This document shows, in pieces, positions 3,790 to 63,612 of a stretch of 64,000 nt of DNA. Both the position numbers and the translations under genes were made by a program. The stretch is from Neisseriaceae bacterium (GTDB taxonomy: Bacteria > Pseudomonadota > Gammaproteobacteria > Burkholderiales > Chromobacteriaceae). The notes below the pieces were generated by a model. The model saw nothing but the letters and a program-made list of their open reading frames with translations, ran no database searches and was not told where the DNA came from. The stretch is from NCBI GenBank assembly GCA_027484385.1, contig JAIXTB010000133.1:714-64713 (forward strand). Direction: 5' to 3'. Each line of letters starts with the position of its first letter. The first letter of the stretch is position 1.

Positions 3790-4094
3790 TGAGCGACAAA
3801 CCCGCCCCTAAAGACCCGCTGCAAGGCGTGACCCTGGAAGCGCTGCTGAACGAGCTGGTGGCGCACTATGGTTGGCCGCAGCTGGGCCGGCTGGTGAAGA
3901 TCCGCTGCTTCAACAGCGACCCCAGCATCAAGTCCAGCCTCACCTTTCTGCGCCGCACGCCATGGGCACGGGCCGAAGTCGAGGCGCTGTACATCCAGCT
4001 GAAAACACCCAAACCCGCCCGCCCGCCACGCACACACACCAGCCAGGGCAACGCCCCGCGCGTGCTGTTTGGCCGCAAGCCGGACGCCAGCTAA
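3789..4094 (+). CDS. VF530/DUF2132-family putative DNA-binding protein
   Basis: DPLQGVTLE...YGW..L...[24 protein letters not shown] family signature. Confidence 0.85.
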
Positions 4095-4145
4095 ACCCTG
4101 CCCGGGCGGGCATATTGCCAGCCGATAGCATGACAGCTACACAGC

Positions 4146-4188
4146 CAATACATTACTATTGATAACCGTTATCAATAGTAATGTATTG
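4146..4188. promoter_or_regulatory. Fur-box-centred perfect 21-1-21 inverted repeat upstream of the ECF sigma gene
   Basis: caatacattactattgataac-c-gttatcaatagtaatgtattg. The core TGATAAC-C-GTTATCA resembles the 7-1-7 Fur box, and it lies directly upstream of an iron-uptake operon. Confidence 0.8.
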
Positions 4189-4190
4189 CG

Positions 4191-4715
4191 ATGACTGCTG
4201 CCTTGCTCCCGCCTGCCGCCACGCCACAGCACTGGTTCGGCATAGACCTGCACTGGGCCTACGCCGAGCTGCTGTCGGCACTGCGTCGCCAGTGCGGCTG
4301 CCCGCAGCGCGCCAAAGACGTGTTGCACGACGCCTTGCTGCGCTACGCGCTATTACAGCACCGCAGCCAGGTAGCCGAGCCGCAAGCCTACCTGCGCCGC
4401 GTGGCACAAAGCGTGCTGAGCGACCAGCTGCGGCGCGACCAGCGCTATGTCTTCGAGGCCGCGCCTGATGAGCAGCGGCTGCCCGCCACCCCCGACACCG
4501 CCGACCTGGCCGCGCTACGCCAGCGCCTGGCGCTGCTGCAGCACGTGATCAACACCCTGCCGCCACGCTGCCGCGAGGTGTTCTGGCGCGTGCGGGTAGA
4601 AGGCAGTAGCCAGCCCGAGGTAGCCGCCGCGCTAGGTATCAGCCTCAATATGGTGGAACGCCACCTGATACGCGCCATGCTGGACCTGCGCGCGCTGCAA
4701 GAGCAGGGCGCATGA
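4191..4715 (+). CDS. FecI-like ECF sigma factor
   Basis: Region 2 (AKDVLHDA...AYLRRVA) and region 4 (LPPRCREVF...VAAALGIS.NMVERHL); overlaps the fecR-like gene. Confidence 0.88.
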   Translation: MTAALLPPAATPQHWFGIDLHWAYAELLSALRRQCGCPQRAKDVLHDALLRYALLQHRSQVAEPQAYLRRVAQSVLSDQLRRDQRYVFEAAPDEQRLPATPDTADLAALRQRLALLQHVINTLPPRCREVFWRVRVEGSSQPEVAAALGISLNMVERHLIRAMLDLRALQEQGA

Positions 4716-5638: not shown

Positions 5639-5661
5639 AAAAAGTTGCGGCCAACTCATCA

Positions 5662-5748: not shown

Positions 5749-8064
5749 ATGACACCTCGCCACACCCTGCTGGCGGCCACGCTGGCCGCCGCCTTCGCCA
5801 GCGCCCAGGCAGCAGACCTGCAGCTGGATCAAGCCGGCCAGCCGCTGGCCAGCAGCCTGCAGCAACTGGCCCGCCAGGCCGGCATTACCCTGATCGTGGA
5901 CAGCAGCCTGCTGGCCGGCAAACAAGCCCCGGCGCTGAAAGGCCAGATGAGCTGGCAAGCCGCCCTGCAACAGCTGCTGGCAGGTAGCGGCCTGCAGCTG
6001 CGCGTGGATGGCAATACCGTTACCGTGCTGCCGGCCCCCCGCGCAGCACACGCCACCACCACGCTGCCCACCGTGCAGGTCACCGCCGACACAGCGGCCA
6101 ACCCCGGCCTGCCTGCCAGCTACCACAGCCGCGCCGCGCGCAGCGGCAGCAAGACCCGCACCCCGCTGGCCGAGGTGCCACAGGCAGTCAGCGTGGTGAA
6201 TACGCTACAGCTGCAAGACCAGCGCGCCGCCACCGTGGCCGAGGCGGTGAGCTACACCCCCGGTGTGGCGGTGTACCCCACCGCGCTCACCGACGACGAC
6301 GTCATCCTGCGTGGCTTTGGTGTGTCCAAAGACGGCCTGTACCGCGACGGCCTGCGCCTGTACCACAACGCCTTCATCAGCCGCAGCGAGCCCTACGGCC
6401 TGGAGCGGGTAGAAGTGGTACGCGGCCCGGCCTCGGTGCTGTACGGCCGTGCCACCCCCGGCGGCATGGTGAACATGGTAAGCAAGCAACCCCGCGCCGG
6501 CATGCAGAACGAAATCGTGGTGGAAAGCGGCAGCCACGGCCACCGTCAGCTGGCCGCTGACATCGGCGGCCAGCTGGACGACGCCGGCACGCTGCGCTAC
6601 CGCCTCACCGCGCTGGGCCGCGACAGCGATACGCAGTGGCAATACCTGCCCGACAACCGCCGCTACCTGGCGGCGGCACTGAGCTGGCAGCCCAGCGACG
6701 CCACCAGCCTGCTGCTGCAGGCGCAGTACCAGCACGACGAAAACGGCTGGGCCGTACCCAGCCAGCTAGTCAGCCCCGGCGCCTTGGGCCAGCCGGATGC
6801 CAGCACCAACCTGCAAGGCCCGGACACGCTGCACGACAAAAAGGGCAGCATGCTGGGCTACCAGTTCAGCCACGCCTTCAACCCGGCGCTGACGCTGCGC
6901 CAGAACGTGCGCTACCTGGACGGCGACAACACCCGGCGCGAGGTACGCCCGCTGGCGCTGGCCGCCGACGGCCGCACGCTCAGCCGCCGCGCCTGGTACC
7001 GCCTGAACCAGGAAACCTCGCTGGCCGCCGACACTCAGCTGGAAAGCCGGCTGCAGCACGGCGATATCCAGCACACGCTGCTGGCCGGCGTGGACTGGCG
7101 CCGCAGTACCTTCCGCCACCCCACCTACCGTGGTGCGGCCAACGCGGTAGACATCTTCAACCCGGTGTTCACCGTACCGGCCTGGGAAAATCTGCCGCTG
7201 CTGTGGGACGACAAAGACACCTCGCGCCAGCTGGGCGTCTACCTGCAAGACCAGGTCAAGCTGGGCGAGCGCTGGGCGGTAACCGCCGGCCTGCGCCACG
7301 ACAAAGTGCGTGACAGCAACGAGCAGCTGGTTGCCAAGCTCACCACCACCGACCGCAGCAGCGCCACCACCGGCCGCCTGGGCGTGGTGTACCTGGCCGC
7401 CAACGGCCTAGCGCCGTACCTCAGCTACAGCACCTCGTTCCAGGCCATCAGCGGCAACGACGCCTACGGCCAGCGCATGAAACCGGAGCAAGGCGAGCAG
7501 TGGGAAGCCGGCGTGCGCTACCAGCCGGAAGACAGCGACACCACGCTGGCGGCCAGCGTGTACCAGCTGCTGCGCGACAACGTCACCACCACCGCGCCGG
7601 CCCCGCTGAGCGGCAATGTGCAAACCGGCCAGGTACGCGCCCGCGGCGTGGAGCTGGAAGCCAGCCTGCGCCTGGCGCGGCAGTGGGACCTGCTGGCCGC
7701 ACTAAGCCATACCGACACCGCCATTACCCGCAGCAACAAGGCCAATGAAGTGGGCCGCCGCGTGGAAATGGTGCCCGACTGGCAAGCCGCGCTGTGGGCC
7801 AAGTACCGCTTTGCCGGCGCACTGCAAGGCATCAGCAGCGCCGTTGGCGTGCGCCACGCTGCCACGTCGCAAGGCGGTGGAGCCAGCCACAACGATGCCT
7901 ACACGCTGACCGACGCCATGCTGGCGTGGGAAAACCGCAGCTGGCGTGCCGCGCTGAACGTGAGCAACGTGTTCGACCAGCACTACCTGACGCTGTGCGA
8001 CGGCACCTTCTGCGCGCCGGGCTTTGGCCGCGCCACGAAGGCGTCGCTGGCCTACCGCTGGTAA
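5749..8064 (+). CDS. TonB-dependent siderophore receptor with N-terminal signalling (STN) domain
   Basis: Signal peptide, STN-like LASSLQQLARQAG, plug ERVEVVRGPASVLYG, C-terminal aromatic residue (YRW). Start at 5749 after a GGAG RBS. Confidence 0.93.
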   Translation: MTPRHTLLAATLAAAFASAQAADLQLDQAGQPLASSLQQLARQAGITLIVDSSLLAGKQAPALKGQMSWQAALQQLLAGSGLQLRVDGNTVTVLPAPRAAHATTTLPTVQVTADTAANPGLPASYHSRAARSGSKTRTPLAEVPQAVSVVNTLQLQDQRAATVAEAVSYTPGVAVYPTALTDDDVILRGFGVSKDGLYRDGLRLYHNAFISRSEPYGLERVEVVRGPASVLYGRATPGGMVNMVSKQPRAGMQNEIVVESGSHGHRQLAADIGGQLDDAGTLRYRLTALGRDSDTQWQYLPDNRRYLAAALSWQPSDATSLLLQAQYQHDENGWAVPSQLVSPGALGQPDASTNLQGPDTLHDKKGSMLGYQFSHAFNPALTLRQNVRYLDGDNTRREVRPLALAADGRTLSRRAWYRLNQETSLAADTQLESRLQHGDIQHTLLAGVDWRRSTFRHPTYRGAANAVDIFNPVFTVPAWENLPLLWDDKDTSRQLGVYLQDQVKLGERWAVTAGLRHDKVRDSNEQLVAKLTTTDRSSATTGRLGVVYLAANGLAPYLSYSTSFQAISGNDAYGQRMKPEQGEQWEAGVRYQPEDSDTTLAASVYQLLRDNVTTTAPAPLSGNVQTGQVRARGVELEASLRLARQWDLLAALSHTDTAITRSNKANEVGRRVEMVPDWQAALWAKYRFAGALQGISSAVGVRHAATSQGGGASHNDAYTLTDAMLAWENRSWRAALNVSNVFDQHYLTLCDGTFCAPGFGRATKASLAYRW

Positions 8065-8068: not shown

Positions 8069-8105
8069 TGCGGCCAACCTGCGCCACCCGGCCAGGTTGG
8101 CCGCA
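8069..8105. repeat. Inverted pair of the TGCGGCCAACCT motif (hairpin)
   Basis: TGCGGCCAACCT-gcgccacccggcc-AGGTTGGCCGCA immediately after the receptor stop codon. Confidence 0.85.
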
Positions 8106-10374: not shown

Positions 10375-11150
10375 ACGATGGCTTGTTACTGCAAGGCGTG
10401 GCCGCCAGCTACGGCCGCCGCCAGATCCTGGCCGACATCAGCTGCCCGCCGCTACCACGTGGCGAAGTCACCGCCGTGCTGGGCCCCAATGGCTGCGGCA
10501 AGTCCACGCTGCTGAAAACACTGGCCGGCCTGTTGCCATTGCACGGCAGTGTGACGCTGGATGGCCAGGCGCTGGGCGCGCTACCGCTGGAAGCGCGCGC
10601 CCGCCACGTGGTGTACCTGCCGCAAAGCCTGCCGCCGGCGCTGCACCTGCGGGTGGTAGAGTCGGTGATGGTAGCGGCCAACGCCAGCGGCCTGGGGCTG
10701 GCCAGCCGCCACGCGGCAGCCGACATCGACACCCTGCTGGCGCGGCTGGGCATGGCCGAACTGGGCATGCGCTACCTGGACGAACTGTCTGGCGGCCAGA
10801 AACAGCTGGTGGGCCTGGCGCAGGCGCTGATCCGCCAGCCCGACGTGCTGCTGCTGGATGAACCCTTGTCGGCACTGGACCTCAACCACCAGTGCCACGT
10901 GATGCAGCTGGTGGCCGAGGAAACCCGCCGCCGCCGCATGGTGACGCTAGTGGTACTGCACGACCTCAATATTGCGCTGCATCACTGCCACCGTGCGCTA
11001 TTACTGAAAGACGGCGCCGTGCTGGCCTGCGGCCAACCTGCCGGTGTGATTACCCCGGCTACGCTGGCCAGCGTCTACGGCGTGCAAAGCCGCGTTGAAG
11101 CGTGTTCGCGTGGCCGCCTTAATGTACTGATCGACGGCGTCATCGCCTGA
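10371..11150 (+). CDS. Iron-siderophore ABC ATP-binding protein
   Basis: GPNGCGKST Walker A, LSGGQKQ signature, LLDEP Walker B. Confidence 0.93.
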   Translation: MNDGLLLQGVAASYGRRQILADISCPPLPRGEVTAVLGPNGCGKSTLLKTLAGLLPLHGSVTLDGQALGALPLEARARHVVYLPQSLPPALHLRVVESVMVAANASGLGLASRHAAADIDTLLARLGMAELGMRYLDELSGGQKQLVGLAQALIRQPDVLLLDEPLSALDLNHQCHVMQLVAEETRRRRMVTLVVLHDLNIALHHCHRALLLKDGAVLACGQPAGVITPATLASVYGVQSRVEACSRGRLNVLIDGVIA

Positions 11151-12000: not shown

Positions 12001-12609
12001 ATGAAACTGTTCTACTCCCCCGGTGCCTGCTCGCTGTCCCCGCACATTGCCCTGGCCGAGAGCGGCCTGCCGTACCAGTTCGAAAAAGTGAACCTGCGCG
12101 CCGAGCCACGCCTCACCGAAAGCGGCGCCGACTTCCGCGCCATCAACAGCAAGGGCTATGTACCGGCACTGCAGCTGGACAACGGCGAGATCCTCACCGA
12201 AGGCCCGGCGCTGGTGCAGTACATTGCCGACCAGGCGCCGGAAAAAAACCTGGCCGCGGCCAACGGCACGCTGGCGCGCTACCGCCTGCAAGAAGCGCTG
12301 AACTTCATTTCCACCGAAGTACATAAAGGCTTCTCCCCGCTGTTCCACAGCCAGGACGAGGCGGTAAAAGAAGCCGCCTGGCAGCGCCTGACCACCCGCT
12401 TTGACGCGCTCAACGCCACGCTGGGCCAGCAAGACTACCTGCTGGGCGACAGCTACACCGTGGCCGACGGCTACCTGTTCGTGTGCCTGTCGTGGACCAA
12501 ATACGTTGGCCGCACCCTGGATGCCTGGCCGGCGCTGCAGGCGTTCAGCGCCCGCATCTTTGCCCGCCCGGCGGTGCAACAAGCGATGAAAGAAGAAGGC
12601 CTGCTGTAA
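12001..12609 (+). CDS. gstA: Glutathione S-transferase (beta class)
   Basis: MKLFYSPGACSLSPHI, N.KGYVPAL..DNGEILTEG. Confidence 0.9.
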   Translation: MKLFYSPGACSLSPHIALAESGLPYQFEKVNLRAEPRLTESGADFRAINSKGYVPALQLDNGEILTEGPALVQYIADQAPEKNLAAANGTLARYRLQEALNFISTEVHKGFSPLFHSQDEAVKEAAWQRLTTRFDALNATLGQQDYLLGDSYTVADGYLFVCLSWTKYVGRTLDAWPALQAFSARIFARPAVQQAMKEEGLL

Positions 12610-12688: not shown

Positions 12689-13033
12689 ATGACCCACCTT
12701 GTGAACGTAGACGGCCTGATCGCCGCCCAGCGCGAGTTTGCCACCGCCCGCCACTGGCAGCCGTTTCACACCCCGCGCAACCTGATGCTGGCGCTGACCG
12801 GCGAAGTCGGCGAGCTGGCCGAGATCTTCCAGTGGAAAACCGACGCCGAGGCCGCCAACCTTGCGGCCAACCCAGCCGACTACACCCACTTGCAGGAAGA
12901 GCTGGCCGATGTGCTGATGTACCTGGTGCGACTGGCCGATGTGACAGGCGTAGACCTGAACGCCGCCGTGGCAGACAAGCTGCAGAAGAACGCCCGCAAG
13001 TACCCGGCCGACGGCAGCCGCGCACTGGGCTAA
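12689..13033 (+). CDS. MazG-like nucleotide pyrophosphohydrolase
   Basis: WQPFHTPRNL..AL.GEVGELAEIFQW, EELADVL.YL. Confidence 0.88.
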   Translation: MTHLVNVDGLIAAQREFATARHWQPFHTPRNLMLALTGEVGELAEIFQWKTDAEAANLAANPADYTHLQEELADVLMYLVRLADVTGVDLNAAVADKLQKNARKYPADGSRALG

Positions 13034-13119: not shown

Positions 13120-15024
13120 ATGACACGCCAACTGTTTGCCGCCAGCCTGCTGGCCATGGCCGTTAGCACCACCTGGGCCGCCCCGGTGAAGCTGCGCCTG
13201 CTGGAAACCAGCGATATCCACATGAACCTGGTGAACTACGACTACTACCAGGACAAAGCCACCGATGATTTTGGCCTGGCCAAAACCGTCAGCCTGATCA
13301 AGACCGCGCGTAGCGAAGCCAGAAACAGCGTACTGATCGACAACGGCGACCTGCTGCAGGGCAGCCCGATGGGCGACCTGGTGGCCAAGGTCAAACCGCT
13401 GAAAAAGGGTGAAACCCACCCGGCCTACACCGTGATGAACGCGCTGCGCTACGACGCCGGCAATATCGGCAACCACGAATTCAACTTCGGCCTGCCCTTC
13501 CTCAAGCAGGCGCTGAAAGGTGCTGCCTTCCCCTATGTGTCGGCCAACGTCACCGACGCCAAAACCGGCAAGCCGCTGGTGCAGCCCTACACCCTGCTCA
13601 AGCGCAAGGTACAGGACGAAGACGGCAAGACGCACACGCTGACCATCGGCGTGATCGGCTTCGTACCGCCGCAGATCCTGATGTGGGATAAGGCCAACCT
13701 GGAAGGCCGCGTGCAGGCGCAGGACATCCTGGACAGCGCCCGCCGCTACGTGCCGGAAATGAAGAAAAAGGGCGCAGACATCGTGGTAGCGGTGGCGCAC
13801 TCCGGCTTCGAGAAGAGCGAACAGCCGCGTTTTGCCGAAAACTCGGTAGCCGGCCTGGCCGAGGTAGCGGGCATTGACGCCATCCTGTTTGGCCACGCCC
13901 ACGCCGAGTTTCCATCCAAGGCGTTTGCCGACTACCCCAAAGTGAATATCGACAAAGGCACCATCAACGGCGTGGCCGCCACCATGCCCGGCCGCTGGGG
14001 CGACCACCTGGGCGTCATCGACCTCACCCTGGACAAGGTTGGCCGCAGCTGGAAAGTGGTCGACCAGCAAGCCAGCCTGCGCCCCATCTTCGACAAGAAA
14101 GCCAAAAAGCCCACCGTAGACGCCGACCCCATGGTGCGCGAGCTGATTGGCCATGTGCACGACGATACCCTGACCTACGTGCGCGGCCGCGTGGCCGAGA
14201 GCACCGCCCCCATCTACAGCTACTTTGCCCAGGTAGCGGATGACCCGTCGGTACAGATCGTGTCGCAAGCCCAGCTGTGGTATGTGCAAAACGCCGTACG
14301 CGGCACCGAATACGAAAAGCTGCCGCTGCTGTCTGCCGCCGCGCCTTTCAAGGCGGGCGGCCGCCAGGGCTGGGGCTACTACACCGATATTCCGGCCGGC
14401 CCGCTGGCCATCAAGCACCTGGCCGACCTGTACATCTACCCCAACACCCTGAAAGTGGTGAAGGTAAAAGGCAGCGACGTACGCGAATGGCTGGAACGCT
14501 CCGCCGGCCAGTTCAACCGCATCGACCCGCAAGGCCCGGCCACCCAGGCGCTGATCAACCCGGACTTCCGCTCGTACAACTTCGATACCATCGACGGCGT
14601 GAGCTACGACATCGACGTCACCCAGCCCTCGCGCTATGACATGGATGGCAAGCTGGTCGCGGCAGAAGCCCGCCGCATCGTGAACCTGCGCTACAACGGC
14701 CAGCCGCTGGACGACAACCAGACCTTCCTGGTAGCCACCAACAACTACCGCGCCAGCGGCGGTGGCAACTTTGCCGGCCTCAACGGCAAGCAGATCGTCA
14801 TTGATGCCCCGGATGAAAACCGTGAAGCACTGGCGCGCTACCTGGCCAGCAAAGGCACCGTGAACCCCAGCCGCGACAACAACTGGCGCATTTTGCCGGT
14901 AGCCGGTGTCGGCCTGCGCTTTAGCACGGGTGCCGGTGCCCGCGCCGTGCTGGCACGCCACCCGGAACTCACCCTGGCAAGCGATAACGGGGACGGCTCA
15001 CTCAGTATCGAGCTGATCAAATAG
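13120..15024 (+). CDS. cpdB: 2',3'-cyclic-nucleotide 2'-phosphodiesterase/3'-nucleotidase
   Basis: ETSDIH, DNGDLLQGSP, GNHEFN, FGHAH metallophosphoesterase motifs and YTYPNTL-like C-terminal domain. Confidence 0.92.
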   Translation: MTRQLFAASLLAMAVSTTWAAPVKLRLLETSDIHMNLVNYDYYQDKATDDFGLAKTVSLIKTARSEARNSVLIDNGDLLQGSPMGDLVAKVKPLKKGETHPAYTVMNALRYDAGNIGNHEFNFGLPFLKQALKGAAFPYVSANVTDAKTGKPLVQPYTLLKRKVQDEDGKTHTLTIGVIGFVPPQILMWDKANLEGRVQAQDILDSARRYVPEMKKKGADIVVAVAHSGFEKSEQPRFAENSVAGLAEVAGIDAILFGHAHAEFPSKAFADYPKVNIDKGTINGVAATMPGRWGDHLGVIDLTLDKVGRSWKVVDQQASLRPIFDKKAKKPTVDADPMVRELIGHVHDDTLTYVRGRVAESTAPIYSYFAQVADDPSVQIVSQAQLWYVQNAVRGTEYEKLPLLSAAAPFKAGGRQGWGYYTDIPAGPLAIKHLADLYIYPNTLKVVKVKGSDVREWLERSAGQFNRIDPQGPATQALINPDFRSYNFDTIDGVSYDIDVTQPSRYDMDGKLVAAEARRIVNLRYNGQPLDDNQTFLVATNNYRASGGGNFAGLNGKQIVIDAPDENREALARYLASKGTVNPSRDNNWRILPVAGVGLRFSTGAGARAVLARHPELTLASDNGDGSLSIELIK

Positions 15025-16143: not shown

Positions 16144-16193
16144 CCAAGACAATGCGGCCAACCCTGGTAACAAGGTTGGCCGCATTGTCTTGG
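16144..16193. terminator. Bidirectional terminator-like hairpin built from two inverted TGCGGCCAACC motifs
   Basis: 20-bp perfect stem ccaagacaatgcggccaacc / ggttggccgcattgtcttgg between convergent genes. Confidence 0.8.
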
Positions 16194-17777: not shown

Positions 17778-19856
17778 ATGGGAAAAACAGCCAAGTGGGG
17801 ACACCTGGGCAACCGCATTATCCTGGTCGCCGGGGTGGCGATTGCGGTAGGTTTCAGCAGCATGATCGGCCTGATTGCCAAGCAAAGCTACGACTCGGCC
17901 AAGAACCAGGGCTACCAGCTGGCATCCGAACAAGCCGGGCGCTTTGCCGATGCCGTAACGGGGGACCTGAGCCGCGGCTTTGCCACGCCCAAACACCTGG
18001 CAGATGCGGTAGCCGGCATGCAGCGTGCCGGCGTGGTAGACCGCAAAGTCATCGATAACACCATCCTTAGCGTACTGGATGCCGAGCCACAAATCATCGG
18101 CATGTGGATGTTGTATGAACCCAATGCCCTGGATGGCAAAGACGACCAGTTCCGTCTGGATTGGCCACGGCACGACCCGTCCGGGCGCTACAGCCCCTAT
18201 ATGACGCGGGGCGCAGACGGCAAAGCGGCGCAAGACGTGATGATGTCCAAAGACCGGGTCGAGAAGTTTCCGGAATGGAAAGACAAACTCACCGAATACG
18301 TACCGGACTACGACAAGCCGGGCTGGGGTGACTTTTACTATGTGCCGAAAACCCGTGGCCGCGACACCATTACCGAGCCGTTCTTTTACGAAGTACAGGG
18401 CAAACAGGTACTGGAAAGCTCGCTGGCCGTGGTCATCAAGGACGCCAGCGGCAAATTCATTGGCGTCGCCGCGGCCGATCTGGCACTGGATACCCTGCAG
18501 AAAAAGTATGGCAGCGTGAAGCTGTACGACACCGGCTATGTACGCATGGTGTCCGAAGGTGGCCTGTACGTGGTGAACCCCGATGCCGCGCTGGTAGGCA
18601 AACCGCTGGCCAAGGAAGACCCGCTGGCGGCCAACGCAGATAAGATCAAGAAAGGCGAAAGCTTCGTCTATGAAGATAGCGGCTTCACCCACTTCTTTTA
18701 CCCGATCAAGGTAGGCGAAACCGGCCAGTACTGGGCAGCGGGCGTATCCATCCCCACCGCAGCCATTACCGAATCGGCCGTGAGCCAGCGCAATATGGCC
18801 ATCGTCATCGGCATCGTGGCGCTGATCATCATCCTGCTGGTACTGGCCGCCGTGGTGCGCGCACTGACCCGCCCGCTGAACACCCTGGCCAACACCATGG
18901 AGCAGCTGGCCAGCGGCAAAGGCGACCTGACTGTACGCATCCATGTCAGCAACCGTGATGAAATCGGCCACACCGCCGACGCCTTCAACCGTTTCATCGA
19001 CAGCCTGCGCGAGATGTTCATCGACGTGCGCGAGCAGAGCCTGGCCGTGAGCCGTAGCGCCGGGCAGCTGGCCGACAGTGCCATCAAGGTAGAACAGGCC
19101 TCGGCGCAGCAGTCCGACGCGGCCAGCGCCACCGCCGCCGGTGTGGAAGAGGTCACCGTCAGCGTGCAGCACATTGCCAACTCGGCCAGCGACGCCGAAA
19201 GCATCGTGCGCGAAACCGGCCAGCTTACCGAGAAGAGCGTGGCCACCGTGGGCCAGGTCACCGACGAAATCCAGCGCATGACCAGCAGCATGCAAGCACT
19301 GGCCGACCGTATGGGCGCGCTCGGAGAGCGCTCGCAAGAGGTCAACACCATCGTCAACGTGATCAAGGACATTGCCGACCAGACCAACCTGCTGGCGCTG
19401 AACGCCGCCATCGAAGCCGCCCGGGCCGGCGAGCAGGGCAGGGGCTTTGCCGTGGTAGCCGACGAGGTACGCAACCTGGCAGGGCGCACTGCCGAAGCCA
19501 CCGTGCAGATCAGCCGCATCGTCAACGCCATCGGCAGCGAAACCAGCGATGCGGTGGCCGACGTGAAACACAGCCGCGACCTGGTAGCGGTGAGCGTGGA
19601 CATTGCCCATGCGGCCAACCAGGCCATGCAAACGGTGCAGGAAAAGAGCCACACGCTGGTGATGTCGATTGGCGACATTGCCTCGTCCACCCGCGAGCAG
19701 TCCAGCGCCACCACCGAGATCGCGCAGAACGTGGAGCGCATCAGCAATATGGCGCACACCAACAGCGACATCGCACGCGAGGTGCGCAGCGAGGTAGAGC
19801 AGCTGCGCGAGCTGTCCGGCAACCTGGAGCGGCTGGTGAGCAATTTCCGGCTATAA
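17778..19856 (+). CDS. Methyl-accepting chemotaxis protein with dCache-type periplasmic sensor
   Basis: Two TM segments, Cache-like ITEPFFY...[14 protein letters not shown] signature [23 protein letters not shown]. Confidence 0.93.
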
Positions 19857-19963: not shown

Positions 19964-20524
19964 ATGGACTGGCCCGCCTACCTGTTTGCCTGCGCTACGC
20001 TAATCCTGACACCAGGTGCCGGCACCCTGTCGGTACTGGGCGCCCGCGCTCACGGCGGTAAACGCGCCGGCCTCATCGCCATCGCCGGCCTGGCGTGTGG
20101 TGACCTGATACTGGTCGTTGCGGTATCCGCCGGCCTGGCCGGCGTACTACAGCAATGGCCCGCAACGCAGCTGCTACTACGCTGGGCAGGTGCCCTGTAT
20201 CTACTATGGTTGGCCGCAACACTGTGGCGCCCACCGACAGCAGTCAGCACAAGGGCAGGACATCATGCCTTCCGCCACAGCCTGCTGCTTACCTTGCTGA
20301 ACCCGAAAGCCATTCTGTTTTTTGCCGTGTTCTTCCCGCCATTTGCCCCACCCGGTAGTGGTATCAGCGGCCTGCTGCTGCCGGGTTTACTGTTCTGCCT
20401 GCTCAATAGCCTGTGGCTGCTGCTCTTGCTGCAGGGGGCACCCGCCCAGCTAATGGGCCCACGCTGGCGGCCATGGTTGGCCGCAGGCTTCGTACTGTTG
20501 GCCGCACGGCTGATCGCCAGCTAA
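19964..20524 (+). CDS. LysE/RhtB-family amino-acid exporter
   Basis: LTPGAG, G..CGD, GALYLLWLA, LLNPKAILFF motifs. Confidence 0.85.
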   Translation: MDWPAYLFACATLILTPGAGTLSVLGARAHGGKRAGLIAIAGLACGDLILVVAVSAGLAGVLQQWPATQLLLRWAGALYLLWLAATLWRPPTAVSTRAGHHAFRHSLLLTLLNPKAILFFAVFFPPFAPPGSGISGLLLPGLLFCLLNSLWLLLLLQGAPAQLMGPRWRPWLAAGFVLLAARLIAS

Positions 20525-22248: not shown

Positions 22249-22279
22249 TTGTTTTGCGGCCAACCCCGCCAGATAGCGG

Positions 22280-40433: not shown

Positions 40434-40546
40434 GGCCAGACGTTGGCCGCAACACCGCCAGGGCAAGCCATACGGCTTGCCCTGCTTTTTTATGCCACAG
40501 CGGTGGCAAACAAACGGCACACACCCGCGATCTGGCCGTTTGGCCA

Positions 40547-46594: not shown

Positions 46595-47484
46595 TGCTGC
46601 TGTACGACCTGGCCGCCGTGGGCGCGGCCACCTGCTGGGCCGCTGGCGGCCTGATCGGTGCCACCCCGGCGCGGCACTTCGGCCCGTTTGCCTTCAGCCG
46701 GCTGCGGCTGAGCTTTCTGACCGTGCTACTGGGCGCTGCCAGCCTGGCGCTGGGGGGCTGGGCCACGCTGCACAGCACCGCGCTGCTGCCGCTCGCGCTA
46801 TCGGCGCTGTTCGGCATTTTTCTGGGCGATGCGCTGATGTTCGCCGCCATGAACCGCCTGGGCCCGCGCCGCACCGGCCTGCTGTTTGCCACCCATTCGG
46901 TGTTTTCGGTGGCGCTGGGCGTGCTGCTGCTGGGCGAAGCACTCAGCCTGCAGGCGCTGGCCGGTAGCGTGCTGGTGTTTGGCGGCGTGCTGGTGGCCGT
47001 GGCCTTTGGCCGCCGCGATGGCAGCACCCACCACTGGGAACAAAGCCACGGTGTGAAAGCCGGCGTGGCACTGGGCCTGGCCGCTGCGCTGTGCCAGGCA
47101 TGCGGTACCTTTTTTGCCAAACCGGCCATGGCCAGCGGGCTAGACCCGCTCACCGCCAGCGCGCTGCGCATGGCGATAGGCTGTGCGGCCAACTGGCTGC
47201 TGTGGGCCAGCGGCAGCCGCCTAGCACGCATGGCCAACCCGCCCACGCCGCGCATCCTGGGCCAGCTGGCGCTGAACGGCGTGGTCGCGCTGGGCCTGGG
47301 CATGACGCTGATCATGGTGGCACTGCAAGGCGGCAACGTGGCTACCGTGGGCATGCTGTCGGCGCTAAGCCCGGTGCTGATCCTGCCCATGCTGTGGGCG
47401 GTCACGCGCCAGGCCCCGCCGCTGCTGGGCTGGCTGGGCGCCGCCATCAGCGTAGCCGGCACCGTGCTGCTACTGGGGCGTTAG
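46594..47484 (+). CDS. DMT/EamA-family transporter
   Basis: Ten TM segments, GIFLGD..MF.A...LGP motif; coupled to pecS. Confidence 0.85.
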   Translation: MLLYDLAAVGAATCWAAGGLIGATPARHFGPFAFSRLRLSFLTVLLGAASLALGGWATLHSTALLPLALSALFGIFLGDALMFAAMNRLGPRRTGLLFATHSVFSVALGVLLLGEALSLQALAGSVLVFGGVLVAVAFGRRDGSTHHWEQSHGVKAGVALGLAAALCQACGTFFAKPAMASGLDPLTASALRMAIGCAANWLLWASGSRLARMANPPTPRILGQLALNGVVALGLGMTLIMVALQGGNVATVGMLSALSPVLILPMLWAVTRQAPPLLGWLGAAISVAGTVLLLGR

Positions 47485-48289: not shown

Positions 48290-48331
48290 AAACAATGCGG
48301 CCAACCTTGCCCAAGGTTGGCCGCATTGTTT
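48290..48331. terminator. Bidirectional terminator-like hairpin built from two inverted TGCGGCCAACCT motifs
   Basis: aaacaatgcggccaacctt-gccc-aaggttggccgcattgttt between convergent genes. Confidence 0.8.
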
Positions 48332-51000: not shown

Positions 51001-52013
51001 GGGGTATCTCCTGCGGTGGTAGCGGGGTGGTAGTGCTGTTCCAGGGTGGCGTGGCCATGCGCTACATGCAGCGTGGCCCAGGCGCCGTTCATCAGGGTCC
51101 ATTGCGGTGGTACATGGCCGATGTCGGCATCCAGTACCAGCGGGCAGGGCAGGCCGTCCAGCGCTTGCATGACGGCTTCTTCGTACTGCAGGTCGCCCGG
51201 CTGCGCGGCCTCGGGGCCGCTGCTGCGCCCCAGTATCAGCCCGGCCAGGCTATCGAACGCCCCGGCCAGGCGCATGGCGGTCAGGGCGCGGGCGAGCTCG
51301 CACGGGGCCAGCTCGCAGTTTTCCAGGTACAGCAGCACGGGTTGGCCGCGCCAGGCTTGCAGGTCGAAGTATGGCGTGGTGGCCAGGCGCGACAGCGTAT
51401 CCAGGCAGCCACCGATCAACCGGCCGGCCATGCTGGCCTGTGCAGCCCCTGCCACACGCACGCGGCTGTTTTTAGTTACACCGGGGTCGCCAAACGGCCA
51501 AAAGTGCGTGAAGGCCTGCTGGCGAGGCGGCAAACCGTGCTGCCAGCTGTGCCACAGCGGCTGCATTTCGCTTTGGCGGGCCGGGTGGCTGATATCAAAC
51601 ACGTTCGGGCTGTGCAGCGTGGCCCAGCCGGCGCGCAGGGTAAACGGTACCGCCAGCGTGGACACATCAGAAAAGCCGCACAGCCATTTGGGCGGCAATG
51701 CGGCCAACCTTGGCCAGTCCAGCCCGGCCAGCAGCTGCATGGCCAGCTCGCCACCCCAGGGCGGCAAAATAGCCTTGATCTCCGGGTCGTACAGAAAACC
51801 GTTGAGCTCTGCCAGCCGGGTAGCGGCACTGGCACTGGCGTTTTTTTCTTGCCGGCGCAGGGTGTCGCCCTCCACCACCTGGTAGCCGGCCGCACGCAGG
51901 GCGGCAATAGAAGCGTCCAGGCGGGCGTGCATCACCTCGGGGACACCGGAGGACACCGCGCACAGCGCCAGCGTGTCACCGGGCTGCAATGGGGCAGGAA
52001 AGCGCAAGTTCAT
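50997..52013 (-). CDS. S66-family LD-carboxypeptidase (MccF-like)
   Basis: GFSDVS (Ser), LYLENCE (Glu), DIGH (His) triad; PPWGGE. Confidence 0.85.
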
Positions 52014-53689: not shown

Positions 53690-54649
53690 ATGAAAAATGT
53701 CCTCCTGCTGCGCACATCATCGATGGGCGACCTTATCCACACCTGGCCGGCACTCACCGACCTGGCACGACACCAGCCCGATACCCGCATCACCTGGCTG
53801 GCCGAAGAAGCCTTTGTGGATATCCCCGGCCTGCACCCGCAAGTACAGGCCACGCTGCCCATTGCCTGGCGCCGCTGGCGCAAGCATTTGCTCGCGCGCG
53901 ATACCTGGCAGCAGATGGCGGCACTGAAAGCATCATTACAAAGCACGCGCTGGGATCTGGTGCTGGACGCACAAGGCCTGTTGAAAAGTGCGCTGCCGGG
54001 CTGGCTGGCCAACGGCCCGCTGGCCGGCTACGACGCCGCCAGCATCCGTGAACCGTTGGCCGCACGTTTTTATCAGCGCCACTACACCGTCAGCCGCCAG
54101 CTGTCAGCCATCGAGCGCAACCGCCGCCTGTTTGCCGCAGCTTTCGGCTATGAAGTAAGCGGCGCGCCGGTGTTTGGCATCCGCGCCGGTGCCCGCCCGG
54201 GCTGGCTGCCCGCCGGGCACTACGCCGTGTTGCTGCACGCCACCAGTCGCGACAGCAAGCTGTGGCCCGAGCCGCACTGGCTGGCACTGGCGGCCGAGCT
54301 GGCCGCACAAGGGCTGTATGCAGTACTGCCGTGGGGCAATGCGGTGGAGCAAGCGCGGGCAGAGCGCTTGGCCGCCGCCATGCCGGGTGCGCTGGTGGCA
54401 CCGCGCATGCCGCTGCGCGATGCAGCAGCGCTGCTGGGCCACGCCGCTGCCGTGGTGGGGGTGGATACCGGCCTGACCCATCTGGCCAACGCGCTGGATG
54501 TGCCATTGGTGGCGATCTATACCGATACCGACCCGGCGCTCACCGGCGTAATAGAAACCACGCGTGCGGCCAACATTGGCCAGGCTGGGCAGGTACCGCC
54601 GGTAGGCGCGGTGCTGGCGCTGCTGGCCCGCGTGCGGGGGGCGGCCTGA
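53690..54649 (+). CDS. waaC: Lipopolysaccharide heptosyltransferase I
   Basis: RTSSMGDLIH, DAQGLLKSA, VGVDTGLTHLA. Confidence 0.9.
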   Translation: MKNVLLLRTSSMGDLIHTWPALTDLARHQPDTRITWLAEEAFVDIPGLHPQVQATLPIAWRRWRKHLLARDTWQQMAALKASLQSTRWDLVLDAQGLLKSALPGWLANGPLAGYDAASIREPLAARFYQRHYTVSRQLSAIERNRRLFAAAFGYEVSGAPVFGIRAGARPGWLPAGHYAVLLHATSRDSKLWPEPHWLALAAELAAQGLYAVLPWGNAVEQARAERLAAAMPGALVAPRMPLRDAAALLGHAAAVVGVDTGLTHLANALDVPLVAIYTDTDPALTGVIETTRAANIGQAGQVPPVGAVLALLARVRGAA

Positions 54650-55896
54650 TGCTGCTGCAGCTGTATTCCGCCCTGTGGCCGCTGCTCACCCCATTGATCA
54701 AGCGTTACCTGAAAAAGCGCGCCCGCCAGGCACCGGCTTATCTTGAACACTGGGACGAGCGCTTCGGCCGCAGCCTGCCGCAGCCACGCGGGCAGCAGAT
54801 CTGGCTGCACGCCGTGTCGGTGGGCGAAACCCGCGCTGCGCTGCCGCTTGTGAAAGCCTTGCGCGCACGTTATCCCCAGGCCAGCCTGCTGATTACCCAG
54901 ATGACGCCCACCGGCCGGGCCACCGCGCAAGAGCTGTACCCAGACGCCCAGGTGCATTACCTGCCGTACGACAATCTGCGCTGGATGCGCCGTTTCGTTG
55001 CCGCCGCGCAGCCTGCCTGCCTGTTGCTGATGGAAACCGAAATCTGGCCGGCCATGATCCACGCCTGCCGCGACGCCAACGTGCCGGTACTGCTGGTGAA
55101 CGCGCGGCTGTCGGAAAAATCCGCCCGCGGTTACCAGCGCATACGCCGCCTGGTACGCCCGGCCCTGCAGCGCCTGAACGCCGTGGCCGCGCAAAGCCCC
55201 GACGACGCCGCCAGGTTGGCCGCATTAGGCACGCCGCCACCGCTGGTGTGCGGCAGCACCAAGTACGATTTCACCCCACCCGCCGACAAGCTGGCGCTGG
55301 GCGAGGCCTTCCGTGCCCGCATCGGTGCGCGCCCGGTGTGGGTGTGCGCCAGCACGCGGGATGGCGAAGAAGCGCTGATTCTGGATGCCTGGCGCGCCGC
55401 CGGCCCGCAGCAGGCCTTGCTGGTGCTGGTGCCGCGCCACCCCGAGCGCTTTGCCGAGGCGGCACAGTTGGCCGCCGCGCGGGGTTTTGCCGTACAGCGC
55501 CGTAGCGACCAGGCCGCGGTGGCCGCCGACACCCAAGTGTGGGTGGGCGACAGCATGGGCGAGCTGTTTGCCTATTACGCCGCCGCCGATGTGGCCTTTG
55601 TTGGCGGCTCGCTGCTGGATTTTGGCGCGCAGAACCTGATCGAGCCGGCGAGCGCAGGCATTCCTGTACTCCTGGGGCCCTCCACCTATAATTTTGCCGA
55701 GGCCAGCGCGCTGGCCCTGCAGGCGGGCGCAGCGCGCCAGGTGCACGACGCAAGCCAGCTGGTCGCCACGGCATTGCAGCTGCTGGCCGACACCGATGCC
55801 CGCCAGCGTATGCGCCAGGCTGGCCTGGCCTTTACCGCCGCCCACCGTGGCGCCAGTGAGCGTATTGCCAGCCTGATCGCAGAAACACTGGGCTAA
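54649..55896 (+). CDS. waaA: Kdo transferase
   Basis: WLHAVSVGE, LPYD, METEIWP, NARLSEKS, VPRHPERF, DSMGEL, AFVGGSL. Confidence 0.95.
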   Translation: MLLQLYSALWPLLTPLIKRYLKKRARQAPAYLEHWDERFGRSLPQPRGQQIWLHAVSVGETRAALPLVKALRARYPQASLLITQMTPTGRATAQELYPDAQVHYLPYDNLRWMRRFVAAAQPACLLLMETEIWPAMIHACRDANVPVLLVNARLSEKSARGYQRIRRLVRPALQRLNAVAAQSPDDAARLAALGTPPPLVCGSTKYDFTPPADKLALGEAFRARIGARPVWVCASTRDGEEALILDAWRAAGPQQALLVLVPRHPERFAEAAQLAAARGFAVQRRSDQAAVAADTQVWVGDSMGELFAYYAAADVAFVGGSLLDFGAQNLIEPASAGIPVLLGPSTYNFAEASALALQAGAARQVHDASQLVATALQLLADTDARQRMRQAGLAFTAAHRGASERIASLIAETLG

Positions 55897-55970: not shown

Positions 55971-56501
55971 ATGCCGGATTACCCCTTAGCCGACCCCTTG
56001 CTGGACGGGGTCTATACCAGCCGCTTGCGCCTGGCTGCCCCGCAGCCGGGCGACGGCGCGGCATTGCAGGCCGCCATCGAGGCCAGCCTGCCGCTGCTGC
56101 GTTGTTTTCCCGACAGCCTGCCGTGGGCGCAGCCGCCACAGCACGCCGAGGCCTGCGAAGCCTGGTGTCGCAAGGTGGCGCTGGTGTGGCCGCAAGGGCA
56201 GGACAAGATTGCCCTGCTTTGGCTGGGGGGCGAGATAGTGGGCTGTTGCGAGTTGCACCTGCGCAGCGCGCAGTGCTGGGAGCTGGGTTTTTGGGGCCAC
56301 CCGGACTGGCTGGGGCTGGGTTTGTATACCGAAGCCACCGACAGCATGTTATCGCTGGCGTTTGGCCCCTACGGCGCGCAGGAGGTGTACGCCTGTACCG
56401 CTGCGGCCAACCATGCCGCACGGCGCCTGTGCCAGCGCCTGGGCATGGTGGAGAGCTGGCAGGATGACAGCAGCTGCCACTACCGAATACGGCTGAATTA
56501 G
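55971..56501 (+). CDS. RimJ/RimL-family GNAT acetyltransferase
   Basis: TSRLRL, ELGFW...G.G..TEA, N.AARRL..RLG. Confidence 0.78.
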   Translation: MPDYPLADPLLDGVYTSRLRLAAPQPGDGAALQAAIEASLPLLRCFPDSLPWAQPPQHAEACEAWCRKVALVWPQGQDKIALLWLGGEIVGCCELHLRSAQCWELGFWGHPDWLGLGLYTEATDSMLSLAFGPYGAQEVYACTAAANHAARRLCQRLGMVESWQDDSSCHYRIRLN

Positions 56502-61220: not shown

Positions 61221-61244
61221 TTAATCAGCCAAGCGGACCCAGCC

Positions 61245-62480
61245 ATGCATCAGCCCTGCCACACCCTGTGGATCAACGCCCGACTCGCCACCTGCGATGC
61301 GGCCAACCCTGCGCCCTATGGTGCGCTGGAAGGCCACGCGCTGTGGCTGCAGGATGGTCGCATCCACGCCGTGCTGCCGCAGGCCGAGGCACTGCAGGCG
61401 TTTGCTGGCGCTGGCGAGGTAATCGACGCGCAAGGCCGCTGGATCACGCCGGGCTTTATCGATTGCCACACCCACCTGGTGTACGGCGGCAACCGCGCCG
61501 CGGAATGGGAAAAACGCCTAACCGGCGTGCCCTACCAGCAAATCGCAGCCGAAGGCGGCGGCATTATCTCCACCGTGCGCGCCACCCGCAGCCTGGACGA
61601 AGACGAGCTGGCGCTGGCCAGCCTGCCACGCCTGAAAGCGCTGATGAAAGAAGGCGTCACCACGGTAGAGATCAAGTCCGGTTACGGCCTGACACTGGCC
61701 GACGAGCTGAAACAGCTGCGCGCCGCCCGCCGCTTGGCTGCTGCGCTGCCGGTGGAAGTGGCCACCACGCTGCTGTCGGCGCACGCGCTGCCGCCGGAAT
61801 ACGCCGGCCAGGCCGACGCCTATATCGATTACGTGTGCCACACCATCGTGCCGGCTGCCGCCGCCGAAGGCCTGGCCGAAGCGGTGGACGTGTTTTGCGA
61901 AGGGGTGGGCTTTTCGCCTGCGCAAACCCGCCGCGTGTTCGACGCCGCCCGCGCCCACGGCCTGCAGCTGAAAGGCCACGTGGAGCAGCTGTCCAACCTG
62001 CACGGCGCCGCGCTGGTGGCCGAGTTTGGCGGCCTGTCGGCAGACCACATCGAATACCTGGACGACGCCGGCGTAGCCGCCATGGCGCAGGCCGGCACCG
62101 TGGCCGTGCTGCTGCCCGGTGCGTACTACTTTTTGCGCGAAACGCAAAAGCCGCCGGTGGACAAGCTGCGCGCCGCTGGCGTGGCCATGGCGGTGTCCAC
62201 CGACCTGAACCCCGGCACCAGCCCGTTTGCCTCCATCCGCCTGGCCATGAACCAGGCCTGCGTGCTGTTCGGCCTGACGCCGGAAGAAGCCGTGCTGGGC
62301 ACCACCCGCCACGCCGCGCAGGCGCTGGGCCGCGCGGCCAGCCATGGCAAGTTGGCCGCAGGCTACGTGGCCGACCTGTTGCTGTGGGATATCGAGCACC
62401 CGGCGGAAATCGTGTACGGCCTGGGCACCAACCCGCTGAAACAGCGCGTGTTCCGTGGCGTGGCGCAGCAGATTGATTGA
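61245..62480 (+). CDS. hutI: Imidazolonepropionase
   Basis: PGFIDCHTHL, GVTTVEIKSGYG, VDVFCE, STDLNPGTSP. Confidence 0.96.
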   Translation: MHQPCHTLWINARLATCDAANPAPYGALEGHALWLQDGRIHAVLPQAEALQAFAGAGEVIDAQGRWITPGFIDCHTHLVYGGNRAAEWEKRLTGVPYQQIAAEGGGIISTVRATRSLDEDELALASLPRLKALMKEGVTTVEIKSGYGLTLADELKQLRAARRLAAALPVEVATTLLSAHALPPEYAGQADAYIDYVCHTIVPAAAAEGLAEAVDVFCEGVGFSPAQTRRVFDAARAHGLQLKGHVEQLSNLHGAALVAEFGGLSADHIEYLDDAGVAAMAQAGTVAVLLPGAYYFLRETQKPPVDKLRAAGVAMAVSTDLNPGTSPFASIRLAMNQACVLFGLTPEEAVLGTTRHAAQALGRAASHGKLAAGYVADLLLWDIEHPAEIVYGLGTNPLKQRVFRGVAQQID

Positions 62481-62512
62481 TCTGTCTGCCTTGAATACAG
62501 AAAACATTTTTA

Positions 62513-62604
62513 GCCACGGAATACACGGAAGACACAGAAAAAAGAAGCCGGCTTCAATGGCATAGGGTTTGGTTTTTTTCCGTGCTTTCTGTGTATTCCG
62601 TGGC
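62513..62604. repeat. Intergenic inverted-repeat element with three 9-nt-periodic CAC(G/A)GAA units per arm
   Basis: gccacggaatacacggaagacacagaaa ... tttccgtgctttctgtgtattccgtggc. Confidence 0.85.
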
Positions 62605-62679
62605 AAAAAAGAAATGCAGTTTTTAAGTGCCGTGGCAAACCACCAGGCGTGCCTGATGACCGGCAAAAAGGATTTTCAA

Positions 62680-63612
62680 ATGACGATAGACATGAGCATG
62701 TGGACCGGCCGCGTCGACGCCGCCGAAGGCGACGCCGCCCGTCGCTGGCACCAGGCCGTACAGCCGCTGGCCGCGGGTGCTGTGCCCGGCATTGCCATCC
62801 TCGGCTTTGCCTGCGACGAAGGCGTGCGCCGTAACCAGGGCCGTACCGGCGCGGTGGATGGCCCGCTGGCGCTGCGCCGTGCGCTGGCCAACCTGGCCTG
62901 GCACCCCACGCTGCCGCTGTACGACGCCGGCACCGTGCGCTGTGACGACGGCGACCTGGACGCCGCGCACGAAAGGTTGGCCGCAGCCGTTACCGCCATT
63001 GTGCAAGCCGGCCACCTGCCGCTGGTACTGGGTGGCGGCCACGAAACCGCCTACGGCCACTGGCTGGGCCTGGCCCGTGCCCACGCCGGCAAGCGCATCG
63101 GCATCGTCAATTTCGACGCCCATTTCGACCTGCGCCAGGCCGACACCGCCACCAGCGGCACGCCGTTTGCGCAGATCGCCGCCGCCTGCAGCACGCTGGG
63201 CCAGCCGTTCCGCTACCTGTGCCTGGGTGTGGCGGAAACCGCCAACACCCGTGCGCTGTTCGATACCGCAGCCCGGCTGGGCGCCGAATGGCGGCTGGAT
63301 AGCGATATGGCCCCGTGGCAGCTGGCCGAAGCGCGCCAGCAGCTGGCCGAGTTTATCGACAGCGTAGACGCCGTGTACCTGACCATCGACCTGGACGTAC
63401 TGCCCGCCGCGCAAATGCCGGCGGTGTCGGCACCGGCAGGTTATGGCGTGGATATCGCCGTGGTGGATGCGCTGGTGGCCAAGCTGGCCCGCAGCGGCAA
63501 GCTGATTGGCGCCGACCTGGTGGAATTCAACCCCGCTTTCGACCAGGACAGCCACGGCGCCAAAGCCGCCGCCCGCCTGGCCTGGGGCATTACCCGCCAG
63601 CTACGCCGTTGA
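62680..63612 (+). CDS. hutG: Formimidoylglutamase (arginase family)
   Basis: GFACDEGVRRNQGR, GGGHETAY, NFDAHFDLR, TIDLDVLP..PAVSAP. Confidence 0.93.
   Translation: MTIDMSMWTGRVDAAEGDAARRWHQAVQPLAAGAVPGIAILGFACDEGVRRNQGRTGAVDGPLALRRALANLAWHPTLPLYDAGTVRCDDGDLDAAHERLAAAVTAIVQAGHLPLVLGGGHETAYGHWLGLARAHAGKRIGIVNFDAHFDLRQADTATSGTPFAQIAAACSTLGQPFRYLCLGVAETANTRALFDTAARLGAEWRLDSDMAPWQLAEARQQLAEFIDSVDAVYLTIDLDVLPAAQMPAVSAPAGYGVDIAVVDALVAKLARSGKLIGADLVEFNPAFDQDSHGAKAAARLAWGITRQLRR

Follow-up and report, generated by a model that had tools for sequence, protein, structure and literature searches.

A hyperabundant DNA word in Vogesella leaves an imprint on codons and amino acids resembling that of DNA uptake sequences

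The closest described systems are the uptake signal sequences (USS) of Haemophilus influenzae and Actinobacillus pleuropneumoniae and the DNA uptake sequence (DUS) of Neisseria meningitidis, for which Findlay and Redfield (2009; PMC2817400) described an imprint on the proteome. Every described DUS dialect has a CTG core at positions 6-8 (Frye 2013, PMC3630211; bioRxiv 10.1101/2025.10.24.684340), and Frye et al. (PMC3630211) reported no DUS in Chromobacterium, Laribacter or Pseudogulbenkiania; Vogesella lay outside their sample. Here we describe a short DNA word, GTTGGCCGCA, found in a 64-kb stretch of DNA (the window: assembly GCA_027484385.1, contig JAIXTB010000133.1, positions 714 to 64,713) whose proteins are 93-96% identical to those of Vogesella mureinivorans and Vogesella aquatica, which places the genome in a Vogesella species. 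We put at roughly two in three the probability that GTTGGCCGCA, which is favored as DNA and peculiar to the genus Vogesella, acts in the manner of a DNA uptake sequence. The novelty lies in the word itself, in the genus and lineage that carry it and in its lack of a CTG core; this type of imprint is already known from USS and DUS.

An exact search confirmed the 42 copies of GTTGGCCGCA that an initial annotation of the window had located, where 0.65 are expected and the maximum among 100 shuffles was 4. With 2,144 copies (0.62 per kb), GTTGGCCGCA is the commonest 10-mer of the genome (assembly of 3.47 Mb in 334 contigs, 61.5% guanine plus cytosine [GC]), and its extended form, AGGTTGGCCGCA, is the commonest 12-mer, with 757 copies. 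The strict core is the 9-mer GTTGGCCGC, which occurs 2,998 times in the genome and outnumbers each of its single-base variants 20- to 1,000-fold; base 10 is A in 71%. The three bases directly 5' of GTTGGCCGCA weakly favor (A/C)-A-G, and otherwise no flanking sequence is conserved. All 16 other Vogesella species carry 1,900-2,900 copies, compared to 8-58 copies in eight sister genera of the same family (2-17 for a reversed-word control), and these motif-poor genera served as motif-free controls.

Genes were called with a codon-usage model (3,076 genes, 86% coding), and those in the window that bear the motif were checked against Pfam. Of the 42 window copies, 31 fall in coding sequence and 11 are intergenic. 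The initial annotation had counted 30 coding copies in five reading frames; the difference lies in GTT-GGC-CGC (VGR), which is read four times rather than three (12505, 14038, 37448 and 44101), while its other frame counts were right: 14 copies read as nnT-GCG-GCC-AAC (xAAN), 10 as nnG-TTG-GCC-GCA (xLAA), 2 as TGC-GGC-CAA (CGQ) and 1 as GGT-TGG-CCG (GWP). Five frames is correct within the window but not genome-wide, where the counts are 646 xAAN, 496 xLAA, 205 VGR, 59 xWP(H/Q), 57 xRPT (the sixth frame, nTG-CGG-CCA-ACn) and 49 CGQ, so that all six frames are used, with a further 610 copies intergenic. About 70% of copies lie in frame inside conserved genes, and their orthologues align without gaps. 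Frame use is predicted by how many near matches outgroup genes offer (r = 0.96). Outgroup coding DNA contains 427, 348, 189, 53, 61 and 167 10-mers that differ from the word by at most two bases, for the frames in the order just given, and relative to this supply the Cys-encoding CGQ frame is clearly underused. Across the six frames genome-wide, frame use showed no correlation with the codon score of Findlay and Redfield (r = 0.03), which was rejected as its cause.

The codons that the word imposes were compared with a background codon usage computed with the word's own codons masked. Several are rare: TTG makes up 8.6% of Leu codons, GCA 11% of Ala, GTT 6.4% of Val and AGG 1.5% of Arg, and CCT (8.6% of Pro), CTT (2.3% of Leu) and CAA (23% of Gln) are also disfavored; TTG, GCA, GTT, CGG and CCA each account for 6-11% of their own codon family. 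The initial description of the motif as written in disfavored codons holds for all of these but not for the commonest frame, xAAN, whose codons are ordinary (GCG 25%, GCC 55%, AAC 75%). Because xAAN needs no rare codon, the term is limited to xLAA, VGR, xRPT, the CAA of CGQ and the flanks. The five examples cited in its favor do read as described (waaA at 55213, the S66 peptidase at 51696, hutG at 62974, tctE at 25820 and the solute-binding protein at 28691).

When codon strings were compared with this background, as the initial annotation had proposed, those at the word's peptides were 5- to 32-fold above expectation genome-wide. TTG-GCC-GCA spells 527 of 3,048 L-A-A tripeptides (16.4 expected; 32-fold), GTT-GGC-CGC 323 of 482 V-G-R (14.8 expected; 22-fold), GCG-GCC-AAC 973 of 1,150 A-A-N (118 expected; 8-fold) and TGC-GGC-CAA 54 of 79 C-G-Q (10.5 expected; 5-fold), and CGG-CCA spells 194 of 2,574 R-P dipeptides (25 expected; 8-fold). 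Within the window alone, the corresponding figures are 11 of 65 L-A-A (0.35 expected), 5 of 7 V-G-R, 22 of 25 A-A-N and 3 of 3 C-G-Q. The neighboring codons follow the same pattern. AGG, 0.1% of codons in the background, precedes TTG-GCC-GCA in 124 of 527 cases (23.5%; ~235-fold), a position that holds 12% of the AGG codons present genome-wide, and after GCG-GCC-AAC the codons CCT and CTT are raised 21-fold and 12-fold, respectively; these flanking codons complete the 12-mer. Synonymous spellings show no such enrichment (GCC-GCC-AAC, 36; CTG-GCC-GCC, 536 versus 737 expected). Copies in the xLAA frame number 0.18-0.20 per kb in genes with weak codon bias, 0.116 in the quartile with the strongest bias and 0.068 in the most biased 5%; xAAN copies stay at ~0.2 per kb throughout. 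The codon cost of the word is visible as this thinning of xLAA.

The initial annotation had also proposed that motif-poor relatives would lack the word and its codons, and a comparison of orthologues bore this out. We compared 1.34 Mb of outgroup genome G018 (65% GC) and 1.27 Mb of outgroup genome G023 (61% GC), together with window-syntenic regions from five sister genera. At the orthologous position, GTTGGCCGCA was present at 0 of 23 aligned window sites in up to five sister genera; genome-wide, G018 had it there at 1 of 336 sites and G023 at 3 of 277. At only 2 of the 23 window sites did some outgroup share the fully encoded residues, and when the peptide was conserved in G018 or G023, it was never spelled TTG-GCC-GCA (0 of 55) or GTT-GGC-CGC (0 of 21). 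Among five Vogesella genomes, most window sites are common and the differences are often synonymous. (For the GNAT gene at 42135-43043, a related-locus search matched only Vogesella and unrelated phyla, and this gene was used for comparison within the genus and not with outgroups.)

The imprint extends to the proteome. In 646 reciprocal-best orthologue pairs (201.5 thousand residues), A-A-N occurs 215 times in Vogesella versus 93 times in the orthologues (2.3-fold), L-A-A 566 versus 454, V-G-R 88 versus 68 and C-G-Q 14 versus 6, while reverse-order controls are flat (N-A-A, 69 versus 61; A-A-L, 389 versus 386; R-G-V, 68 versus 58). Overall, the imprint amounts to 2.3-2.5-fold for A-A-N, ~2.5-fold for C-G-Q and 1.3-1.4-fold for V-G-R and L-A-A. 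A larger, ~6-fold estimate for A-A-N, obtained with non-word A-A-N of the same genome as the baseline, was dropped in favor of the outgroup frequency, since A-A-N sites of ancestral age now spell the word and are lost from that baseline.

Against an overall identity of 0.757 to the outgroup, codons around the word reach 0.61-0.72 and its last codon 0.40. A test with two outgroups (457 genes, 203 sites) separated two components of this drop. The two outgroups share a residue at 57% of the codons within words, 66.5% of those flanking them and 75.4% of the remainder, indicating that words sit at intrinsically variable places, so low conservation alone was in part rejected as proof of word-driven replacement. 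On top of this, at positions where they share a residue, Vogesella has a different one in 19.6% of word codons, 14.6% of those in the flanks and 10.9% of codons elsewhere (word codons versus the rest, odds ratio 2.0, p = 8e-6), a two-fold excess that indicates added lineage-specific amino acid replacement at word codons. Together, the codon strings and the motif-free orthologues demonstrate that the word is favored at the DNA level and not as a peptide, as first suggested for the window, and that amino acids are altered as well as codons.

The word is also evenly distributed. Copies are balanced between strands genome-wide (1,105 forward, 1,039 reverse), with no strand skew, and on either side of a putative origin at ~53.3 kb of the window they are mixed (left, 19 forward and 16 reverse; right, 4 forward and 3 reverse). 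Window positions 25457-55896 are syntenic with 4.21-4.28 Mb of the 4.34-Mb contig G018:C1, a stretch 60-130 kb from the end of this complete, single-contig sister genome, which fits an origin-proximal location. Spacing of GTTGGCCGC is more even than Poisson (per 10 kb, mean 8.7, variance 6.7). The four gaps of more than 9 kb that are free of GTTGGCCGC are all low-GC islands (43-54% GC; Table 1) and were probably acquired recently. Inverted pairs of GTTGGCCGCA no more than 50 bp apart number 124 genome-wide, with three between genes in the window. Intergenic DUS of Neisseriaceae likewise often stand in such pairs, which resemble terminators.

Uptake-biased molecular drive is the probable cause of these patterns. 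Competent cells would take up word-bearing fragments more readily, and alleles gaining the word by point mutation would then spread through recombination. Inside genes, the word would arise where the sequence is already one or two bases away and where the change of codon or residue is tolerated. Selection would oppose this drive, and such a push back would account for the underuse of the CGQ frame, with its Cys, and for the thinning of xLAA in strongly codon-biased genes.

Parts of the corresponding machinery can be recognized. The genome carries dprA, and comEC (PF03772) occurs in 15 of 16 congeners. Its obvious candidate receptor, judged from the protein sequence, is a ComP-like minor pilin of 138 amino acids (G000:C190:11676-12089; locus L139:1177-1593) that is present in 16 of 16 congeners at 44-91% identity. 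Its best matches among solved structures are Neisseria ComP, namely meningococcal 2M3K (E = 1.4e-10), 5HZ7 and 2NBA; it has only two Cys, and the match stops short of the C-terminal region. A gene for a FimT/GspH-like pilin lies just upstream (L139:596-1177). The strongest match to the Pfam family PF16732 (ComP_DUS) is a different protein, a PilE-like minor pilin (G000:C27:12942-13223; L005:1432-1905, minus strand; best PDB match, 4NOA) that lies in a pilV/W/X-type minor pilin cluster. As this strongest match is PilE-like, the Pfam name alone is misleading, and since pilins of this kind occur in almost all genomes of the order, the presence of PF16732 was rejected as a marker of the system.

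Several observations weigh against an uptake role. The CTG core of described DUS dialects is absent from the word in either orientation. Our literature search yielded neither a paper that links Vogesella to a DNA uptake sequence nor data on competence or biased uptake in the genus, and a search for the word itself returned only unrelated primer strings. Among several Vogesella species with the word in common, identity of the C190 pilin is only 44-54%, and ComP-family pilins, including full-length homologues of the C190 pilin, also occur in motif-poor sister genera. Finally, this assembly yielded no comEC, but the expected place of the gene falls between two contig ends: in two congeners, comEC lies exactly between sequences matching the ends of contigs C290 (about 12805) and C87 (2583). 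The gene therefore probably falls in an assembly gap, and loss of comEC was rejected. Many Vogesella assemblies also break ~9.3 kb from comEC.

The missing competence data, the lack of a CTG core and the occurrence of ComP-like pilins outside the motif-rich genus are also what speak for the best surviving alternative, a DNA-level process other than uptake, such as an abundant chromosome-organizing DNA-binding protein or a recombination or repair signal, with the word spread by selection or biased repair. We consider this unlikely. Known polar signals (Chi and the FtsK orienting polar sequences [KOPS]) are strand-skewed about the origin, and the word is not; its even spacing, its inverted pairs, its lack of copies in low-GC islands and its roughly two-fold enrichment of tripeptides are what uptake sequences show (PMC2817400); and its lineage is sister to the Neisseriaceae that bear DUS. 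It is likewise doubtful that the word is the footprint of an undescribed genome-wide process of repair, recombination or chromosome organization, and not of uptake, that writes or preserves a 10- to 12-mer.

A bias of mutation or repair could in principle make the word passively. GGCC, which the word contains, is a common cytosine-methylation site, and very-short-patch repair tied to its methylation would be one such route. However, the specificity spans 9-12 bases, with single-base core variants 20- to 1,000-fold rarer, the enrichment of more than 1,000-fold is far above known repair-bias effects, and flank preferences such as AGG are not tied to a 4-base site, making this explanation very improbable. 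The high copy number and the inverted pairs between genes recall small mobile repeats of the REP (repetitive extragenic palindromic) or MITE (miniature inverted-repeat transposable element) type, but the copies are almost certainly not remnants of such an element: the flanks show no conserved sequence beyond the weak preference at three 5' bases, and some 70% of copies stand in frame in conserved genes whose orthologues align without gaps. Selection on the peptides A-A-N, L-A-A and V-G-R, with codons simply following, would explain their enrichment in the proteome but is effectively refuted by the codon strings (synonymous spellings are not enriched), by flanking partial codons that also track the word, and by the fact that six unrelated peptides and the 610 non-coding copies share the DNA word only.

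The imprint on codons and amino acids is the strongest evidence available from sequence for DNA-level maintenance of the Vogesella word, and it turns a bare over-representation into a measured system of drive versus selection, in which the rare codons TTG, GCA, GTT and AGG are imposed hundreds of times and one tripeptide is more than doubled. For annotation, it means that 12% of the AGG codons and the majority of A-A-N tripeptides in this genome result from the word and should not be taken for functional protein motifs. Because the Chromobacterium group was reported to be without DUS and the word has no CTG core, confirmation of uptake would extend the range of uptake sequences beyond Neisseriaceae sensu stricto and Pasteurellaceae, and would provide a free-living, culturable genus in which to study how uptake specificity and receptor change.

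The window copies, located by exact-match search and assigned with the gene calls, are listed in Table 1. Two copies were considered as coding and rejected as such. The copy at 27581 could be read in the sixth frame over an ATG start (ATG-CGG-CCA-AC), but the conserved N terminus of the response regulator, MRLLLVEDN, begins at 27531. The copy at 33294 lies in an open reading frame of 222 amino acids that has no Pfam match, in a region poorly conserved among Vogesella. The LysE-family gene holds three copies, all in one frame and two close to its 3' end; it has a low coding score (21) and a Pfam match covering profile positions 2-153 of 193, and its C terminus may be decaying or remodeled.

Table 1. 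Copies of GTTGGCCGCA in the window and word-free gaps elsewhere in the genome. Strand is that of the GTTGGCCGCA copy; gene strand is in brackets. G019, G021 and G024 are compared genomes.
Position	Strand	Reading	Gene or context	Remarks
3871..3880	+	GGT-TGG-CCG-CAG (G-W-P-Q)	VF530 DNA-binding protein, 3789-4094(+)	G021 GGT-TGG-CCG-GAG, one base off
5646..5655	-		intergenic
7134..7143	-	GGT-GCG-GCC-AAC (xAAN)	TonB-dependent receptor, 5749-8064(+)
8069..8078	-		intergenic	left arm of inverted pair with 8096
8096..8105	+		intergenic	right arm of inverted pair with 8069
11028..11037	-	TGC-GGC-CAA-CCT (C-G-Q-P)	ABC ATPase, 10371-11150(+)
12505..12514	+	GTT-GGC-CGC-ACC (V-G-R-T)	glutathione S-transferase, 12001-12609(+)	outgroups HKL, VKR, VKL
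12862..12871	-	CTT-GCG-GCC-AAC (L-A-A-N)	MazG-like, 12662-13033(+)	outgroups AED, RED, PVD, ADD
14038..14047	+	GTT-GGC-CGC-AGC (V-G-R-S)	5'-nucleotidase, 13120-15024(+)
16153..16162	-		intergenic	inverted pair with 16175
16175..16184	+		intergenic	inverted pair with 16153
19610..19619	-	CAT-GCG-GCC-AAC (H-A-A-N)	chemoreceptor, 17778-19856(+)
20209..20218	+	TGG-TTG-GCC-GCA (W-L-A-A)	LysE family, 19964-20524(+)
20476..20485	+	TGG-TTG-GCC-GCA	LysE family, 19964-20524(+)
20497..20506	+	CTG-TTG-GCC-GCA	LysE family, 19964-20524(+)	21 bp after copy 20476
22255..22264	-		intergenic
25822..25831	+	TGC-GGC-CAA-CCT-TTG (C-G-Q-P-L)	tctE-like sensor kinase, 25457-26866(-)	two closest outgroups GTC or AGC-GGC-CAG-CCG
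27581..27590	+		intergenic	upstream of response-regulator gene
28693..28702	-	AAT-GCG-GCC-AAC-CTT (N-A-A-N-L)	solute-binding protein, 27758-28819(+)
32671..32680	+	ATG-TTG-GCC-GCA (M-L-A-A)	AbrB family, 31925-32956(+)	V. urethralis CTG-GCC-GCT, same peptide
33294..33303	+		treated as intergenic	in uncalled open reading frame 32964-33632
35802..35811	+	TCT-GCG-GCC-AAC (S-A-A-N)	POR/DUF6537 oxidoreductase, 35649-39140(-)	5 outgroups: ADN (3), RDK, ANN
36495..36504	+	ATT-GCG-GCC-AAC (I-A-A-N)	POR/DUF6537, 35649-39140(-)	A-S-N (AGC) in 5/5 outgroups
37448..37457	-	GTT-GGC-CGC-ATC (V-G-R-I)	POR/DUF6537, 35649-39140(-)	outgroups GTC/GTG, then K, Q or A in place of Vogesella Gly
40442..40451	+		intergenic
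41277..41286	-	CAT-GCG-GCC-AAC	GNAT, 40876-42168(+)
42482..42491	-	TTT-GCG-GCC-AAC-CCG	GNAT, 42135-43043(+)	V. urethralis TAC-GCC-GCC-AAC-GCG
43013..43022	+	CGG-TTG-GCC-GCA	GNAT, 42135-43043(+)
43980..43989	-	ATT-GCG-GCC-AAC	AlaX-like, 43453-44187(+)
44101..44110	+	GTT-GGC-CGC-ATT	AlaX-like, 43453-44187(+)	G021 and V. urethralis GTG-GGG-CGC-ATC; same peptide, all differences synonymous
45356..45365	+	TCT-GCG-GCC-AAC	EamA, 45116-45979(-)
47184..47193	-	TGT-GCG-GCC-AAC	EamA, 46594-47484(+)
48296..48305	-		intergenic	inverted pair with 48316
48316..48325	+		intergenic	inverted pair with 48296
51699..51708	-	AGG-TTG-GCC-GCA-TTG (R-L-A-A-L)	S66 LD-carboxypeptidase, 50997-52013(-)	G019 CAA-CTG-GCA-ACA
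54055..54064	+	CCG-TTG-GCC-GCA	heptosyltransferase (GT9), 53654-54649(+)	5 outgroups L-A-S or L-A-C; Leu CTG/CTC in 4, TTG in G024
54565..54574	-	CGT-GCG-GCC-AAC	heptosyltransferase (GT9), 53654-54649(+)
55215..55224	+	AGG-TTG-GCC-GCA-TTA (R-L-A-A-L)	waaA, 54649-55896(+)	5 outgroups keep R-L (CGT/CGG/CGA/CGC, mostly CTG; TTG in G018), next two residues variable
56402..56411	-	GCT-GCG-GCC-AAC	GNAT, 55971-56501(+)
61298..61307	-	GAT-GCG-GCC-AAC-CCT	amidohydrolase (hutI-like), 61209-62480(+)
62351..62360	+	AAG-TTG-GCC-GCA	amidohydrolase (hutI-like), 61209-62480(+)	outgroups CGC/CGT/CGA-CTG-GCC-GAA/GAG/GTC
62976..62985	+	AGG-TTG-GCC-GCA	arginase family (hutG-like), 62569-63612(+)	G021 CGG-CTG-GCA-GAT
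C265:0-12974			word-free low-GC gap	43% GC
C295:6797-20848			word-free low-GC gap	54% GC
C61:2568-15729			word-free low-GC gap	51% GC
C180:1417-10712			word-free low-GC gap	45% GC

The Vogesella word shares with the USS and DUS imprints (PMC2817400) a strong frame bias, roughly doubled tripeptides, flat reverse-order controls, a location in less conserved segments and an opposing force comparable to codon selection. It differs from them in that frame use follows near-match supply (r = 0.96) and not codon score (r = 0.03), and in that xLAA, second in use among the frames, requires two rare codons. Like the DUS of Neisseriaceae, it is a clade-specific 10- to 12-mer that occurs ~0.6 times per kb on both strands, often as inverted pairs between genes, in a lineage next to the DUS bearers where type IV pilus genes and a ComP-like minor pilin are present. 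DUS themselves number hundreds to thousands per genome, at about 1 per kb. Unlike a DUS, it does not combine a CTG core at positions 6-8 with A at position 10; aligned to the dialects, GTTGGCCGCA or TGCGGCCAAC reads CCG or CAA at the core positions. It also differs in belonging to the Chromobacterium group, and its uptake role and receptor are both putative. Hyperabundant short words inside genes are known from cyanobacteria, whose highly iterated palindrome HIP1 (GCGATCGC) is read in several frames, whatever the peptide. HIP1 is a palindrome linked to methylation, whereas the word described here is longer and asymmetric. Chi and KOPS are over-represented 8-mers that are likewise tolerated inside genes but strongly skewed to the leading strand; the Vogesella word, in contrast, is free of skew, with both orientations found to the left and right of the putative origin.

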